The translations under genes and the position numbers were made by a program. Source: Formosa sp. Hel1_33_131 (GTDB lineage Bacteria; Bacteroidota; Bacteroidia; Flavobacteriales; Flavobacteriaceae). Taken from it: a DNA stretch of 32,000 bases. Location: positions 1,350,001 to 1,382,000 of the forward strand of contig NZ_CP017260.1 of assembly GCF_001735745.1 (NCBI RefSeq). Direction: 5' to 3'. The notes beneath the pieces were generated by a model that saw only the letters and a list, made by a program, of their open reading frames with translations, searched no databases and was not told where the DNA came from. This document shows, in pieces, positions 14,269-24,346 of the stretch; within the stretch, counting starts at the first letter, position 1; every line of letters starts with the position of its first letter.

Positions 14269-15297
14269 ATGAATAAAAAGTTTGAATTAAAAGGAAAATC
14301 TATATTAATTACTGGAGGGACAGGTTCTCTTGGGAAAGCACTTACAAGTCATATTCTTGCTACATATCCCGAAACTCGAAAACTCATTATTTATTCTAGA
14401 GATGAGCAAAAGCAGTTTCAAATGGCTCAAGAATTTCCTGTACATAAATATCCACAAATACGTTATTTTATTGGAGATGTTAGAGACAAGGACCGTCTAA
14501 CAAGAGCCTTTCAAGACGTTGATTATGTGATTCATGCAGCTGCCATGAAACACGTTCATATTGCAGAATACAATCCAGGAGAGTGTATTAAAACCAATAT
14601 AGGCGGCGCTGAAAATGTGGTTGAAGCCTGCCTTCAAACGAAGGTTCAACGTGTAGTAGCCTTATCTACTGATAAAGCCTGTGCCCCCATAAATTTATAT
14701 GGCGCCACGAAGCTTACTTCTGATAAATTATTTATAGCAGCTAATAATATAAAAGGAGACAATCCCATTCGTTTTTCCGTAGTTCGATATGGGAACGTTA
14801 TGGGCTCTAATGGTTCTGTAATTCCATTTTTTATTAATAAAAAGAAAGAAGAGAATAAACTTCCTATTACCGACCCCAATATGACCCGATTTAATATTTC
14901 TCTTCAGGGAGGAGTTGATATGGTGATGCATGCGCTTGAGCACGCTTGGGGAGGGGAATTATTTGTTCCTAAAATACCGTCTTATAAAATCATGGATGTT
15001 GCAAACGCTATTGGCCCAGACTGTGAGAAACCCTTAGTGGGAATTAGACCAGGCGAAAAAGTTCATGAAGAGATGATTACCCCTTCAGATTCTTTTTACA
15101 CCTACGACTTAGGAAAATATTATGTAATATTGCCCGCAACACATATGTGGAAGTTAAGGGACTTTTTAGACACTTTTGATGCCAAAAAAGCACCTCATGG
15201 GTTTAGTTATAATTCAGGTGATAATGATGATTGGGAAACCGTAGAAAGTCTTAGAAATTTAATAAAAGAACATGTAGATTATAACTTTAAAGTATAA
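14269..15297 (+). CDS. pseB: UDP-N-acetylglucosamine 4,6-dehydratase (inverting), PseB/FlaA1 type
   Basis: It agrees nearly motif-for-motif with the PseB family as I recall it: ILITGGTGSLGKA, IIYSRDEQKQ, FIGDVRDKDRL, ALSTDKACAPINLYGATKLTSDKLF, VVRYGNVMGSNGSVIPFF, ITDPNMTRF and GIRPGEKVHEEMI. Confidence 0.9.
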   Translation: MNKKFELKGKSILITGGTGSLGKALTSHILATYPETRKLIIYSRDEQKQFQMAQEFPVHKYPQIRYFIGDVRDKDRLTRAFQDVDYVIHAAAMKHVHIAEYNPGECIKTNIGGAENVVEACLQTKVQRVVALSTDKACAPINLYGATKLTSDKLFIAANNIKGDNPIRFSVVRYGNVMGSNGSVIPFFINKKKEENKLPITDPNMTRFNISLQGGVDMVMHALEHAWGGELFVPKIPSYKIMDVANAIGPDCEKPLVGIRPGEKVHEEMITPSDSFYTYDLGKYYVILPATHMWKLRDFLDTFDAKKAPHGFSYNSGDNDDWETVESLRNLIKEHVDYNFKV

Positions 15298-16439
15298 TGA
15301 AAGTGATCCCTTACGGAAGACAACATATAGACCAAGACGATATTGATACGGTTGTAAAAACGCTTTCTGCAGATTTTTTAACGCAAGGACCAAAGGTTAA
15401 AGAGTTTGAAGAAAAGTTTGCGACCTATGTAGGTGCAAGATTTGCAGTTGCTGTAAACAATGCTACTTCAGGACTGCACTTAGCAGTTTTGGCACTCGGT
15501 TTAAAAAAAGGAGAACGTGTTATTACAACGCCTATTACCTTTGCTGCATCGGCGAACTGTGTTCGATACGCGGGCGGCAAAGTTTGGTTTGCAGATATTG
15601 ACAAAGATTCATACACATTATGTTTAGAAAGCACTAGAAAGCTTATTGAGAGCAAGCCAAAAGGTTTTTTTAAAGGCATAATACCTGTTGATTTTGCGGG
15701 GCTTCCAGTAGATTTAGAAGCATTTAGAGCCTTGGCCGACAAACATGATTTATGGATCATTGAAGATGCCTGCCATGCACCAGGAGGTTATTTTACAGAT
15801 TCAAAAAGTAAAAAACAACTGTGTGGTAACGGAAATTATGCAGATATAGGGATATTTTCATTCCACCCAGTAAAACATATCGCGTGTGGAGAAGGCGGGA
15901 TGATTACTACAAATTCCGAAACACTGTATAAAAAGCTAGCATCCTTAAGATCACATGGGATCACCAAAGATCACATGGCTGAAAACCATGGTGGTTGGTT
16001 TTATGAAATGCAAGAGTTAGGGTTTAACTACAGGCTAACAGATATACAATCAGCCTTAGGGATTACACAACTTGCAAAAAATAACGCTGGTGTAGCGAGA
16101 AGAAACGACATAGCAAAAACTTACAAACACGCTTTTAAAGGAATTGTGAAATTTCAAAACTTACAAGAAGGTGATTTAAATGCACATCATTTATTTGTCA
16201 TAGAGGTTGAAGATAGAAAAGGGTTATACGACTTTTTAAGAACGCATCAAATTTTTGCTCAAATACATTATATCCCCGTACATACGTTGCCCTATTATAA
16301 AGAAATAGGGTATAAAAGTGCAGATTTAAGCAACTCTGAAGCCTATTATTCTAAATGCATTAGTTTGCCAATGTATCCGACTCTAACAGATGAAGAACAA
16401 GCATTTGTTATTGAAAAAGTGTTAACTTTTGTGAAATGA
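15297..16439 (+). CDS. pseC: UDP-4-amino-4,6-dideoxy-N-acetyl-beta-L-altrosamine transaminase (DegT/DnrJ/EryC1 family)
   Basis: IPYGRQHIDQDDIDTVVKTLSADFLTQGP, NATSGLHLA, FSFHPVKHIACGEGG (PLP lysine), SHGITKD, GFNYRLTDIQSALG and HYIPVHTLPYY are present. The TAATG start/stop overlaps pseB. Confidence 0.9.
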   Translation: MKVIPYGRQHIDQDDIDTVVKTLSADFLTQGPKVKEFEEKFATYVGARFAVAVNNATSGLHLAVLALGLKKGERVITTPITFAASANCVRYAGGKVWFADIDKDSYTLCLESTRKLIESKPKGFFKGIIPVDFAGLPVDLEAFRALADKHDLWIIEDACHAPGGYFTDSKSKKQLCGNGNYADIGIFSFHPVKHIACGEGGMITTNSETLYKKLASLRSHGITKDHMAENHGGWFYEMQELGFNYRLTDIQSALGITQLAKNNAGVARRNDIAKTYKHAFKGIVKFQNLQEGDLNAHHLFVIEVEDRKGLYDFLRTHQIFAQIHYIPVHTLPYYKEIGYKSADLSNSEAYYSKCISLPMYPTLTDEEQAFVIEKVLTFVK

Positions 16440-16960
16440 AATCAAAATATTTAGAGTCCAAAAGGCTTTATTTTGAAGCACTTTCCTCAAAACACCTTTC
16501 GGAAGTCTATGTGAATTGGCTCAACGATACGAGAGTAAATAAATACTTAGAGTCTGGTGGCGATTATACATTAAATAAACTAGAATCGTTTTTAAATGAA
16601 CAAGAACAAAAAAATATTTTGTTTTGGGCGATTCACATTAAAGAGTCTAAAAAGCATATTGGGAATATAAAAATTGACCCCATAAACTTAGATAATAATT
16701 CTGGGGAATACGGAATATTGATGGGCGATTGTAACGAATGGGGCAAGGGTTATGCCAAAGAAGCTTCTGTAGCCATTATAGATTATTGCTTTAAGACTCT
16801 AAAATTCTCTAAAATTACATTAGGAGTCATTGACGAAAACAAGAATGCTGTAAAACTATATGAGAAATTAGGGTTCGCAACAGAATCTATCATTGAAAAC
16901 TCAGGAGTTTACGACAACAAGATGTGTAACTCTATACGAATGGTAAAAAGAAATGATTGA
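16436..16960 (+). CDS. pseH: GNAT (RimL/Acetyltransf_3-type) N-acetyltransferase, candidate for the PseH step
   Basis: The 174-aa protein has the GNAT core GILMGDCNEWGKGYAKEA...NKNAVKLYEKLGF. It sits directly after pseC with an ATGA overlap. The PseH role is inferred from context and fold only. Confidence 0.6.
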   Translation: MKSKYLESKRLYFEALSSKHLSEVYVNWLNDTRVNKYLESGGDYTLNKLESFLNEQEQKNILFWAIHIKESKKHIGNIKIDPINLDNNSGEYGILMGDCNEWGKGYAKEASVAIIDYCFKTLKFSKITLGVIDENKNAVKLYEKLGFATESIIENSGVYDNKMCNSIRMVKRND

Positions 16961-23290: not shown

Positions 23291-23293
23291 AAA

Positions 23294-24346
23294 ATGAAAA
23301 ACATACACATAGGAAATACGGAAATAGGAGGAGATAATCCATGCTTTATTATTGCGGAGCTTTCTGCCAATCATGGAAAAGATATTAATATAGCCATTGA
23401 AACGATTCGGGCCGCTAAAAAAACAGGAGCAGATGCGATTAAGTTGCAAACCTTCACTCCAGACACAATTACATTAGATGCCAAAAATGAAGCCTTCTTA
23501 ATTAACCATGGGACGCAGTGGGACGGTAAGTATTTACACGAACTATATAATGAAACGTATTTGCCTTGGGAATGGCATGAAAGACTGTTTAAAGTAGCAA
23601 AGGAAGAAGGTTTGGTCTGTTTTTCATCCCCATTTGATTTGACTGCAGTAGACTTTTTAGAAACGTTGAATACCCCTGCATATAAAATTGCATCCCCTGA
23701 AATTTTAGACATCCCATTAATTGAAAAATGTGCCAAAACCGGCAAGCCAATAATAATAAGCACAGGAATTGCCACCATTGCCGATATTGATTTGGCAATT
23801 AATACTTGTAGGAATGTAGGAAACAACCAAATTGTGTTGTTAAAATGTACAACGTCTTACCCTGCTCCAATTGAAGATGCGAATCTAAAAACAATAAACA
23901 ATTTTGCTGAGACATTTCATGTTATTCCAGGCCTTTCAGATCATACCTTAGGAACAATAGCGCCAACCGTTTCAGTTGCATTAGGAGCGAAAGTTATTGA
24001 AAAACATTTTATATTAGACAAATCTGTTGGCGGAGCTGATGCTGCATTTTCTTTAGATGTTGAGGAATTTACTCAAATGGTTAAATCCGTAAGAGACGCA
24101 GAAAAAGCGATAGGACAAGTGTCATACAATATTGGAAGCAAAGCAACCAATTTATCTAAACTAGCCTCGCGCTCATTGTTTATTACTAAAGATGTAAAAA
24201 AGGGAGACCTTATTACGGAAGAAAATATTCGTTCGGTTCGCCCTGGAAATGGAATTCACCCAAAGCACTACAAAGAAATATTAGGTAAAAAATTCGCGAA
24301 AGACGCAAGTTTTGCCACGCCACTAGATTTTAAACACATTAAATAA
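23294..24346 (+). CDS. pseI: pseudaminic acid synthase (NeuB family, with C-terminal SAF domain)
   Basis: CFIIAELSANHGKDINIAIETIRAAKKTGADAIKLQTFTPDTIT, YKIASPEILDIPLIEKCAKTGKPIIISTGIA, LLKCTTSYPAP, GLSDHTLG, IEKHFILDKSVGGADAAFSL and IRSVRPGNGIHPK are present. Confidence 0.92.
   Translation: MKNIHIGNTEIGGDNPCFIIAELSANHGKDINIAIETIRAAKKTGADAIKLQTFTPDTITLDAKNEAFLINHGTQWDGKYLHELYNETYLPWEWHERLFKVAKEEGLVCFSSPFDLTAVDFLETLNTPAYKIASPEILDIPLIEKCAKTGKPIIISTGIATIADIDLAINTCRNVGNNQIVLLKCTTSYPAPIEDANLKTINNFAETFHVIPGLSDHTLGTIAPTVSVALGAKVIEKHFILDKSVGGADAAFSLDVEEFTQMVKSVRDAEKAIGQVSYNIGSKATNLSKLASRSLFITKDVKKGDLITEENIRSVRPGNGIHPKHYKEILGKKFAKDASFATPLDFKHIK

Follow-up and report, generated by a model that had tools for sequence, protein, structure and literature searches.

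Which sugar does a pseudaminic acid (Pse) operon make when further enzymes are interleaved among its pse genes? This question is raised by an 11-gene cluster of Formosa sp. Hel1_33_131, a flavobacterium from the North Sea that is in culture and has a complete genome of 2.7 Mb. The cluster lies in a 32,000-nucleotide stretch of contig NZ_CP017260.1 (positions 1,350,001 to 1,382,000), which we call the window and to which all coordinates refer. Three proteins encoded there, the phosphoglycerate kinase, the class-III aminotransferase and PseI, are identical to entries for this strain. We found that the added genes belong to two recurrent cassettes. Cassette A, which sits where PseF otherwise sits, consists of a GNAT-family N-acyltransferase (GNAT1), an aldo/keto reductase (AKR), a cytidylyltransferase (CT3) and a class-III aminotransferase (AT3). 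Cassette B consists of a short-chain dehydrogenase/reductase (SDR), a metallophosphoesterase and an ATP-grasp protein; it lies directly upstream of pseI and is found both together with cassette A and in its absence. The operon product is very probably a modified Pse derivative activated with cytidine monophosphate (CMP), not plain Pse5Ac7Ac, and an undescribed surface sugar is the likely outcome.

We classified the open reading frames (ORFs) of the window with Pfam and with curated NCBIfam equivalog models and their cut-offs. An initial annotation of this DNA had recognized PseB, PseC, a GNAT in the role of PseH, PseG and PseI. PseB, PseC and PseI pass the corresponding models, and PseG is borderline, with a full-length match to TIGR03590 at 150.0 bits, just below the cut-off of 153.55. 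From their family membership, these four enzymes would build the sugar backbone in the usual way. The operon GNAT is only PseH-like and scores 50.0 bits against the PseH equivalog TIGR03585 (cut-off 93.1). The annotation had also counted eleven genes but named ten, and it overlooked the absence of PseF. The eleventh gene (17830-18594) encodes the sole cytidylyltransferase, which is of the SpsF type and fails the PseF equivalog TIGR03584 with 27 bits against a cut-off of 205.7. No other ORF in the window matches a PseF profile. The five enzymes originally singled out as extra were named correctly as an aldo/keto reductase, a class-III aminotransferase, an SDR, a metallophosphoesterase and an ATP-grasp protein (Pfam Aldo_ket_red, Aminotran_3, adh_short, Metallophos and ATP-grasp_3), and they are real enzymes in that the catalytic motifs of all are intact.

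All eleven ORFs lie on the forward strand between 14269 and 24346, and their common direction, gaps of at most 33 nt and overlaps are exactly as first described. TAATG junctions occur at 15297 (pseB/pseC) and 19941 (AT3/pseG), and an ATGA junction at 16436 (pseC/GNAT1). GNAT1 and AKR overlap by 8 nt (16953-16960), and the phosphoesterase and ATP-grasp genes by 11 nt (22352-22362). The AKR and CT3 genes are 1 nt apart, the widest internal gap is 33 nt (18595-18627), and a 170-nt gap is seen only 3' of pseI, the last of the eleven genes. A promoter and terminator scan of the window gave nothing better than shuffled sequence. The contig of this locus is also found in many marine metagenomes. Moreover, the same 11-gene order recurs in Aquimarina sediminis (L089; L numbers denote the loci compared below), in a Cellulophaga metagenome-assembled genome (MAG; L092) and in marine metagenome contigs including L097, and the arrangement is therefore not a chance juxtaposition.

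For comparison we used 80 genomic loci fetched with AT3, 80 metagenomic loci retrieved by an ATP-grasp alignment and a small number of named genomes, and annotated all of their ORFs with family hidden Markov models built in this analysis. The genomic context of AT3 consists of pse genes in most of the 80 AT3-fetched loci, with PseI present in 56 and AKR in 64. AKR is directly 5' of CT3 in 58 of the 80, and CT3 and AT3 form one fused protein of about 675-680 amino acids (aa) in 50. Other fusions join GNAT1 to AKR (Gillisia L034, 464 aa), AKR to GNAT1 (L025, 496 aa) and CT3 to AKR (L036 and L130). Because CT3 is fused to AT3 and GNAT1 to AKR, we assign the cytidylyltransferase and the GNAT to cassette A together with the two other enzymes. 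Of 63 loci with cassette A, 40 contain GNAT1, against 0 of 12 without the cassette (Fisher p = 3e-5, for loci that are not phylogenetically independent), and GNAT1 thus belongs with this cassette and is not the plain PseH it was first taken for. Loci with more aminotransferases also have more GNAT types: in PseF-only loci GNAT2, the PseH-type protein, is the sole type, whereas many cassette A loci have GNAT1 and GNAT2. The window and its closest relatives lack a GNAT2 gene.

In a species-representative genome collection, relatives of AT3 occur at no fewer than 598 places among the 600 matches listed. Their hosts among these matches include Bacteroidota, many Proteobacteria, Chlorobi, Cyanobacteria (Synechococcus, Prochlorococcus, Moorena), SAR11, Leptospira, Verrucomicrobia, Legionellaceae and the archaeon Methanobrevibacter, and identity to the window copy is 58-80% across phyla. 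Cassette A is therefore extremely widespread, a large unstudied family and not a peculiarity of this genome. AT3 retains the pyridoxal phosphate (PLP) lysine K267 and D239. It is named glutamate-1-semialdehyde 2,1-aminomutase (HemL) in GenBank and IMG, which is a family-level label only: AT3 fails the HemL equivalog TIGR00713 with 199 bits against a cut-off of 527.3, and its best model, PRK06209, gives 240 bits against 486. Relatives of AT3 with solved structures include aminoglycoside C-6' aminotransferases, which act on oxidized sugars. The AKR tetrad D46/Y51/K75/H109 is conserved in 58 homologues, and a comparison of AKR with PDB sequences gave no match at 1e-10.

Several variants of cassette A were seen in passing. 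In Methanobrevibacter, SAR11 and SAR116 (L013, L050-L053, L077), AKR-CT3-AT3 is kept and pseC is absent. These loci encode PseB, an RmlD-like reductase and a NeuB-like synthase 31-34% identical to PseI, which suggests that the cassette A substrate there is a 7-hydroxy, 9-deoxy nonulosonate. A second NeuB/PseI-like gene lies between AKR and CT3, besides the terminal pseI, in L010, L054, L063, L102 and L148. In loci from Chlorobi and proteobacteria (L016, L022, L025, L035, L057, L076), pseI is followed by genes for a 244-aa cytidylyltransferase, a Gfo/Idh/MocA protein, a DegT-type aminotransferase and often a GNAT, a set that looks like a second oxidation, amination and acetylation module. AKR-CT3-AT3 was also found with pse genes on IMG/VR contigs (L174-L176, L179, L183, L188, L191), some of them labeled giant-virus MAGs, with mis-binning possible; the 188-kb viral-classified contig L174 reads PseB PseC AKR CT3 AT3 PseG FormylT PIGL FormylT PseI.

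We then considered what occupies the position of PseF in related loci. Where cassette B is present without cassette A, a true PseF (284-300 bits) follows pseC directly. In Pedobacter foliorum (L091) and in L137 the slot is filled by AKR, an adh_short_C2-type SDR and CT3. This is the composition of two Acinetobacter baumannii prophage proteins, EpaA, a fusion of CTP_transf_3 and Aldo_ket_red domains, and EpaB, an SDR, which convert Pse5Ac7Ac to 8ePse5Ac7Ac as determined by nuclear magnetic resonance (NMR) of the capsule (PMC12053666). Thus, the slot after pseC holds one of three sets: PseF, an oxidoreductase, cytidylyltransferase and SDR, or an oxidoreductase, cytidylyltransferase and aminotransferase. 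A nonulosonate cluster on the Halorussus aquaticus plasmid NZ_CP100401.1 (L088:7055-10305) has Gfo/Idh/MocA-CT3-AT3, with an aminotransferase 49% identical to that of the window and Gfo/Idh/MocA in place of AKR. The remaining combination is found in A. baumannii KL49 and Vibrio vulnificus, where ElaABC converts CMP-Leg5Ac7Ac to the 8-epimer of legionaminic acid (Leg). Crystal structures and docking led to the proposal that ElaB is the cytidylyltransferase, that ElaA, a Gfo/Idh/MocA protein, oxidizes C8 of CMP-Leg and that ElaC, a KAR-like SDR, reduces the 8-keto intermediate (PMC13656337). Taking Epa, Ela, Halorussus and cassette A together, all four pairings of AKR or Gfo/Idh/MocA with SDR or AT3 therefore occur beside a cytidylyltransferase. 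The comparison with Ela and Epa suggests a rule for such loci, in which an oxidase and a dedicated cytidylyltransferase would yield an epimer with a reductase or an amine with an aminotransferase.

One alternative is that CT3 simply acts as PseF, so that plain Pse5Ac7Ac is made and the other additional enzymes either act on another part of the repeat unit or are dispensable for the glycan. SpsF-type cytidylyltransferases occur without AKR or AT3 in pse loci L135 and L161, so they can probably serve as PseF alone, and the Formosa locus also encodes enzymes for rhamnose and other sugars. However, both cassettes stay at set positions between pseC and pseI in different phyla and next to unrelated downstream glycosyltransferase sets, gene fusions tie GNAT1, AKR, CT3 and AT3 together, and the translationally coupled genes of the window speak for a single pathway. 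We consider a plain Pse5Ac7Ac product very unlikely.

Cassette B has its own pattern of conservation. The phosphoesterase gene is directly 5' of the ATP-grasp gene in 55 of the 64 loci with a visible upstream ORF; pseI is directly 3' of the ATP-grasp gene in 45 of 62 loci and within three genes of it in 53 of 62. In Bacteroidota the SDR always accompanies this pair, AKR-less loci included, whereas outside Bacteroidota the pair is preceded by a NAD-epimerase-like protein and a methyltransferase. Cassette B accompanies cassette A in 22 loci, PseF alone in 5 and an Epa-like set in 3, and the two cassettes are therefore independent. These distributions also bear on the initial annotation. Its view that the additional enzymes are interleaved in a pse operon was borne out. 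They are strongly co-conserved with pseB, pseC and pseI in other genomes, and the co-occurrence check that it had set therefore failed to refute its reading. But the five do not represent one lineage-specific expansion; they belong to two independent, recurrent cassettes that combine freely. Nor do the two oxidoreductases work together: AKR travels with CT3 and AT3, and the SDR with the phosphoesterase and ATP-grasp protein.

The phosphoesterase has the complete motif set DxH / GD / GNH / H / GHxH, and searches of PDB sequences with it and with the SDR returned uncharacterized structures only. The third protein, assigned to Pfam ATP-grasp_3, has invariant ATP/Mg-binding residues K148, E259 and N261. 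Its AlphaFold2 (AF2) model (predicted local distance difference test score, pLDDT, 91.7) matches 2pn1, PurK and PylC with template modeling (TM) scores of 0.73-0.78, and L-amino-acid ligases as well. Judged from the model, it is a protein with the fold and motifs of a carboxylate-amine ligase.

Two alternative functions for cassette B were rejected. Replacement of PseG by the phosphoesterase is contradicted by related loci that lack both, and acylation of an AT3-made amine by the ATP-grasp enzyme by the presence of cassette B in loci without any AT3. An ATP-grasp enzyme mentioned in a Shewanella flagellin paper was uninformative for cassette B. As a separate observation, PseG and GNAT2 appear mutually exclusive in cassette B loci of Bacteroidota (L008, L090, L098 and L101-L113 versus the window, L089, L092, L097 and L115), and PseG is missing as well from several loci that have cassette A but not cassette B.

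The presence of an SDR in the operon means that the window holds AKR, an SpsF-type cytidylyltransferase and an SDR, which is the composition of EpaA plus EpaB. The operon could accordingly make an 8-epimer or another Pse stereoisomer, with AKR and this SDR as the redox pair and AT3 acting elsewhere or without a role in the sugar. Yet the operon SDR is of a different subfamily and travels with the phosphoesterase/ATP-grasp pair even in PseF loci that lack AKR (L108-L110, L115), and the Epa-like loci L091 and L137 carry both an Epa-type SDR beside AKR and the cassette B SDR. Furthermore, no other protein of the cluster is as conserved as AT3, whose catalytic lysine is retained. An epimer is, in our judgment, a highly improbable product.

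If the product is neither plain Pse5Ac7Ac nor an epimer, what does cassette A do? As in the EpaAB and ElaABC systems, a CTP_transf_3 cytidylyltransferase adjoins an NAD(P)-dependent oxidoreductase in the window, but the SDR-type 8-keto reductase is absent from cassette A and a class-III aminotransferase takes its slot. Because cassette A thus keeps the Ela/Epa oxidoreductase and cytidylyltransferase and has a PLP aminotransferase in place of the ketoreductase, we read it as oxidizing and then aminating C8. By analogy with ElaABC and EpaAB, AKR would oxidize Pse or CMP-Pse at the C8 hydroxyl, giving a ketone, and AT3 would convert this 8-keto group to an amine, where the short-chain reductase of those systems gives the 8-epimer. 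GNAT1 would probably acylate the new amine in an optional step, and CT3, in place of PseF, would activate the modified sugar with CMP. The predicted product is a 5,7,8-triamino-3,5,7,8,9-pentadeoxy-nonulosonate, although C4 may be the site of this chemistry instead of C8. We infer every one of these chemical steps by analogy, and we regard backbone amination as quite possible while stopping short of calling it probable.

A sugar of this type exists. The initial annotation had mentioned an 8-amino nonulosonate in the flavobacterium Tenacibaculum maritimum, and its O antigen indeed contains 5-acetamido-7-(3-hydroxybutyramido)-8-amino-3,5,7,8,9-pentadeoxynonulosonic acid (PMC3210612). This sugar is flavobacterial and Pse-like and combines an extra C8 amine with a non-acetyl N-acyl group, the pair of features that we predict from cassettes A and B. 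The T. maritimum case is known as chemistry alone, with no genes assigned to the 8-amino sugar (PMC9796276); papers on this O antigen mention a gene resembling pseB and a "locus 2" of eight genes, without giving detail. The earlier statement that no gene set was known to be assigned to such chemistry therefore holds for T. maritimum, but not for C8 of Pse and Leg, to which EpaAB and ElaABC have been assigned (PMC12053666, PMC13656337).

For cassette B, we tentatively infer that attachment of a non-acetyl acyl group is the most likely function. Since the operon has no GNAT2-type PseH, the ATP-grasp ligase may acylate a free amine, forming an amide from a non-acetyl carboxylic acid on what is probably N7, the amine installed by PseC. 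In L115 and L135 the ligase is the only candidate N-acyltransferase, which likewise suggests that this enzyme puts a non-acetyl acid on N7, though not as a general rule. With low confidence, we propose that the SDR would shape the acid of the acyl group, perhaps by setting a hydroxyl, and that the phosphoesterase would dephosphorylate an acyl or amine partner that carries a phosphate. Comparative sequence evidence thus favors as plausible the two chemistries first proposed, addition of an amine and of an acyl group other than acetyl, and the earlier interpretation as a whole is partly supported.

Several observations weigh against this pathway. Most AKRs reduce carbonyls rather than work in the oxidizing direction. 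A triamino sugar made by cassette A should be very common, given SAR11, Prochlorococcus and Bacteroidota, yet a single structure of this kind has been recorded. In some cassette A loci no N-acyltransferase of any type was seen. In L089 (6237-7526), L092 and L097, AT3 is replaced at the same position by a different class-III aminotransferase that is only 32-33% identical to it. AT3 paralogues of about 60% identity adjoin peptide ABC transporters with no sugar genes nearby; these stand-alone copies were seen in Devosia and other Alphaproteobacteria (L061, L070, L071, L084), the transporters being read from sizes and sequences only. With respect to cassette B, many loci carry GNAT1, GNAT2 and the ATP-grasp gene together, so the ligase is not simply a PseH substitute, and the fold search returned generic carboxylate-amine ligases only and gave no clue to the substrate. 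Finally, the authors of the EpaA study call its AKR domain a reductase (PMC12053666). As an aside, the aminotransferase swap in L089, L092 and L097 resembles AciB/AciE of the Aci system, in which exchange of one SDR changes the C8 outcome (PMC5595891).

A possible counter-example is Tannerella forsythia ATCC 43037, which makes Pse5Am7Gra with an 8-hydroxyl group and whose annotated "PseF" is inactive on Pse5Ac7Ac (PMC5378307, PMC6120980). This "PseF" scores 37 bits against Campylobacter jejuni PseF and is probably an SpsF-type cytidylyltransferase, and unassigned ORFs flank it at the positions of AKR and AT3. The inactivity of this weakly matching enzyme on Pse5Ac7Ac fits with cytidylyltransferases dedicated to modified sugars. 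No Tannerella protein was among the 120 matches listed in a homologue search with a Bacteroidales CT3. If Tanf_01205 is the AT3 orthologue, then C8 amination fails in this organism at least, and a side-chain role is the better reading.

Cassette A would then remodel or supply an N-acyl side chain and leave the backbone alone. Either AT3 converts an aminoacyl group on N7 (for example seryl or glutamyl) to a keto-acyl group that AKR reduces to a hydroxy-acyl group such as glyceroyl or 2-hydroxyglutaryl, or the two enzymes make a hydroxy acid from an amino acid for attachment by GNAT1 or the ATP-grasp ligase. The glyceroyl group of the T. forsythia sugar has no assigned gene, the usual reducing direction of AKRs suits this chemistry, flavobacterial O antigens typically contain hydroxy acids in amide linkage (2-hydroxyglutarate, malate, 3-hydroxybutyrate), and the AT3 paralogues beside peptide transporters suggest small-molecule substrates in the AT3 family. 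However, most cassette A loci encode no enzyme for attachment of an amino acid or for activation of a free acid, and the T. forsythia flanking ORFs are known by position only. The fusion of AT3 to a domain of the CMP-ulosonate synthetase family in 50 of 80 loci points to the backbone, as does the EpaA precedent, in which the same pair of AKR and cytidylyltransferase acts at C8. A side-chain function therefore seems unlikely to us, and we keep C8 amination as the preferred reading.

The genes flanking the operon indicate where its product is used (Table 1). Directly upstream, separated from pseB by 10 nt, are rmlC and rmlD, and downstream a flippase and a repeat-unit polymerase adjoin the sugar-synthesis genes, as is characteristic of Wzx/Wzy loci. 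The eleven genes are thus one operon inside a Wzx/Wzy-dependent O-antigen or capsule locus. The polysialyltransferase-like glycosyltransferase is a candidate Pse transferase. The downstream stretch also encodes two Wzy_C proteins (PF04932 twice) and an epimerase (PF01370), and has a GC content of 0.25-0.30 compared to 0.33-0.39 upstream. Three Wzy/O-antigen-ligase-like membrane proteins are encoded in a row (26799-28010, 28003-29205, 29291-30538), and the order of genes from 24517 to 31602 is also kept in A. sediminis (L089). No initiating transferase was seen within the 32-kb window. Just upstream of the polysaccharide genes, at 8524-11730, lie genes for an OlsH-like GH3-family protein (389.9 bits, below the cut-off of 620) and then a DUF6909 protein.

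Table 1. Coordinates and family assignments of genes in the window.
Feature	Coordinates	Strand	Family match
rmlC + rmlD (dTDP-rhamnose branch)	12853..14258	+	TIGR01221 221.8 bits, TIGR01214 321 bits, both above cut-off
pseB, UDP-GlcNAc 4,6-dehydratase (inverting)	14269..15297	+	TIGR03589 494.8 bits (cut-off 407.75), passes
pseC, DegT-type aminotransferase, installs amine becoming N7	15297..16439	+	TIGR03588 459.2 bits (cut-off 423.5), passes
GNAT1, PseH-like N-acyltransferase of the subfamily travelling with cassette A	16436..16960	+	PF13302 79.8 bits
AKR, aldo/keto reductase (cassette A)	16953..17828	+	PF00248 116.9 bits
CT3, SpsF-type cytidylyltransferase, CTP_transf_3 (cassette A)	17830..18594	+	PF02348 128.8 bits; PDB 6oew 121.5 bits
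AT3, class-III (GSAM-like) aminotransferase (cassette A)	18628..19941	+	PF00202 133.7 bits
pseG, UDP-sugar hydrolase	19941..20936	+	TIGR03590 150.0 bits (cut-off 153.55)
Classical SDR, benzil/sepiapterin-reductase-like (cassette B)	20946..21641	+	PF00106 100.3 bits; NF005436 191 bits, below cut-off
Metallophosphoesterase, YfcE-like (cassette B)	21643..22362	+	PF12850 76.3 bits
ATP-grasp carboxylate-amine ligase (cassette B)	22352..23290	+	PF02655, PF15632; NF009402 217.7 bits against 218
pseI, pseudaminic acid synthase	23294..24346	+	TIGR03586 486.7 bits (cut-off 340.25), passes
Assembly part of polysaccharide locus (Wzx, glycosyltransferase, Wzy_C x2, Wzy-type polymerase, epimerase)	24517..31602	+	
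Wzx flippase	24517-25761	+	PF01943
Polysialyltransferase-like glycosyltransferase	25758-26792	+	PF07388 34.7 bits
Wzy-type polymerase	29291-30538	+	TIGR04370 65.3 bits (cut-off 40)

Recognition of a bacterial surface by phages, by grazers and by immune systems is shaped by nonulosonic acids, and it is stated explicitly in the T. forsythia papers that little is known about the enzymes that diversify these sugars (PMC5378307, PMC6120980). If cassette A aminates C8, it would be the first gene set for a T. maritimum-type sugar, would explain a fused enzyme with relatives at some 600 or more places among genomes that each represent one species, and would lead us to expect that major ocean bacteria display a sialic-acid-like sugar with a positive charge or an extra acyl group. 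A broader proposition, which we advance as doubtful, is that the CT3-AT3 cassette defines a widespread, unrecognized class of 8-amino (triamino) nonulosonic acids and that the phosphoesterase/ATP-grasp pair provides a second, separate general route to non-acetyl N-acyl nonulosonates. Were this true, the 8-amino class would decorate abundant marine bacteria (Flavobacteriia, SAR11, Prochlorococcus/Synechococcus), Legionella, Leptospira, gut Bacteroidales and methanogens, and the T. maritimum sugar would be its only member seen to date. The prediction is directly testable because the host is in culture and its genome is complete.

Characterized systems provide partial models for both cassettes. 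KdnB/KdnA of Shewanella, which make 8-amino-Kdo (Kdo8N), and WbpB/WbpE/WbpD oxidize a hydroxyl, transaminate the carbonyl and optionally N-acetylate the amine, and Kdo8N is a precedent for amination of an ulosonic acid before CMP activation. These enzymes are from different families than those of cassette A (Fe-alcohol dehydrogenase or Gfo/Idh/MocA, and other aminotransferase classes) and act on different substrates, and we claim no homology. A possible model for the phosphoesterase/ATP-grasp pair is found in the C. jejuni capsule, where the ATP-grasp amidoligase Cj1438 forms an amide with a phosphorylated partner and the phosphatase Cj1435 then removes the phosphate. The likeness drawn here is one of function; Cj1435 is a HAD-type phosphatase, and the carboxylate is that of glucuronate in a polymer.

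The closer parallels are with the C8-epimerizing systems. ElaABC shares a three-part logic with cassette A, in that a dedicated cytidylyltransferase is combined with two further enzymes, a dehydrogenase for C8 and one that takes the 8-keto intermediate as its substrate. It differs in its legionaminic backbone, in having a Gfo/Idh/MocA dehydrogenase instead of AKR and in lacking an aminotransferase; the Halorussus plasmid pairs an ElaA-type Gfo/Idh/MocA protein with the same CT3 and AT3 types as the window. ElaB was not among the matches of CT3 to PDB sequences. Searches of phage records with the AKR-CT3 DNA (blastn) or the CT3 protein (tblastn) gave no useful EpaA-like match, and a scan of viral contigs with the AKR alignment found cassette A but no EpaAB-type pair. 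The likeness to EpaA is one of domain composition: its two Pfam families are those encoded side by side at 16953-18594 and fused, as in EpaA, in the cassette relatives L036 and L130, and both EpaAB and cassette A act downstream of an ordinary pse pathway. The difference lies in the partner, which for EpaA is the short-chain dehydrogenase EpaB, giving an epimer, and in cassette A is a class-III aminotransferase. The Formosa locus thus belongs to a very large and unstudied family assembled from two portable cassettes, of which cassette A has characterized cousins in EpaAB and ElaABC.

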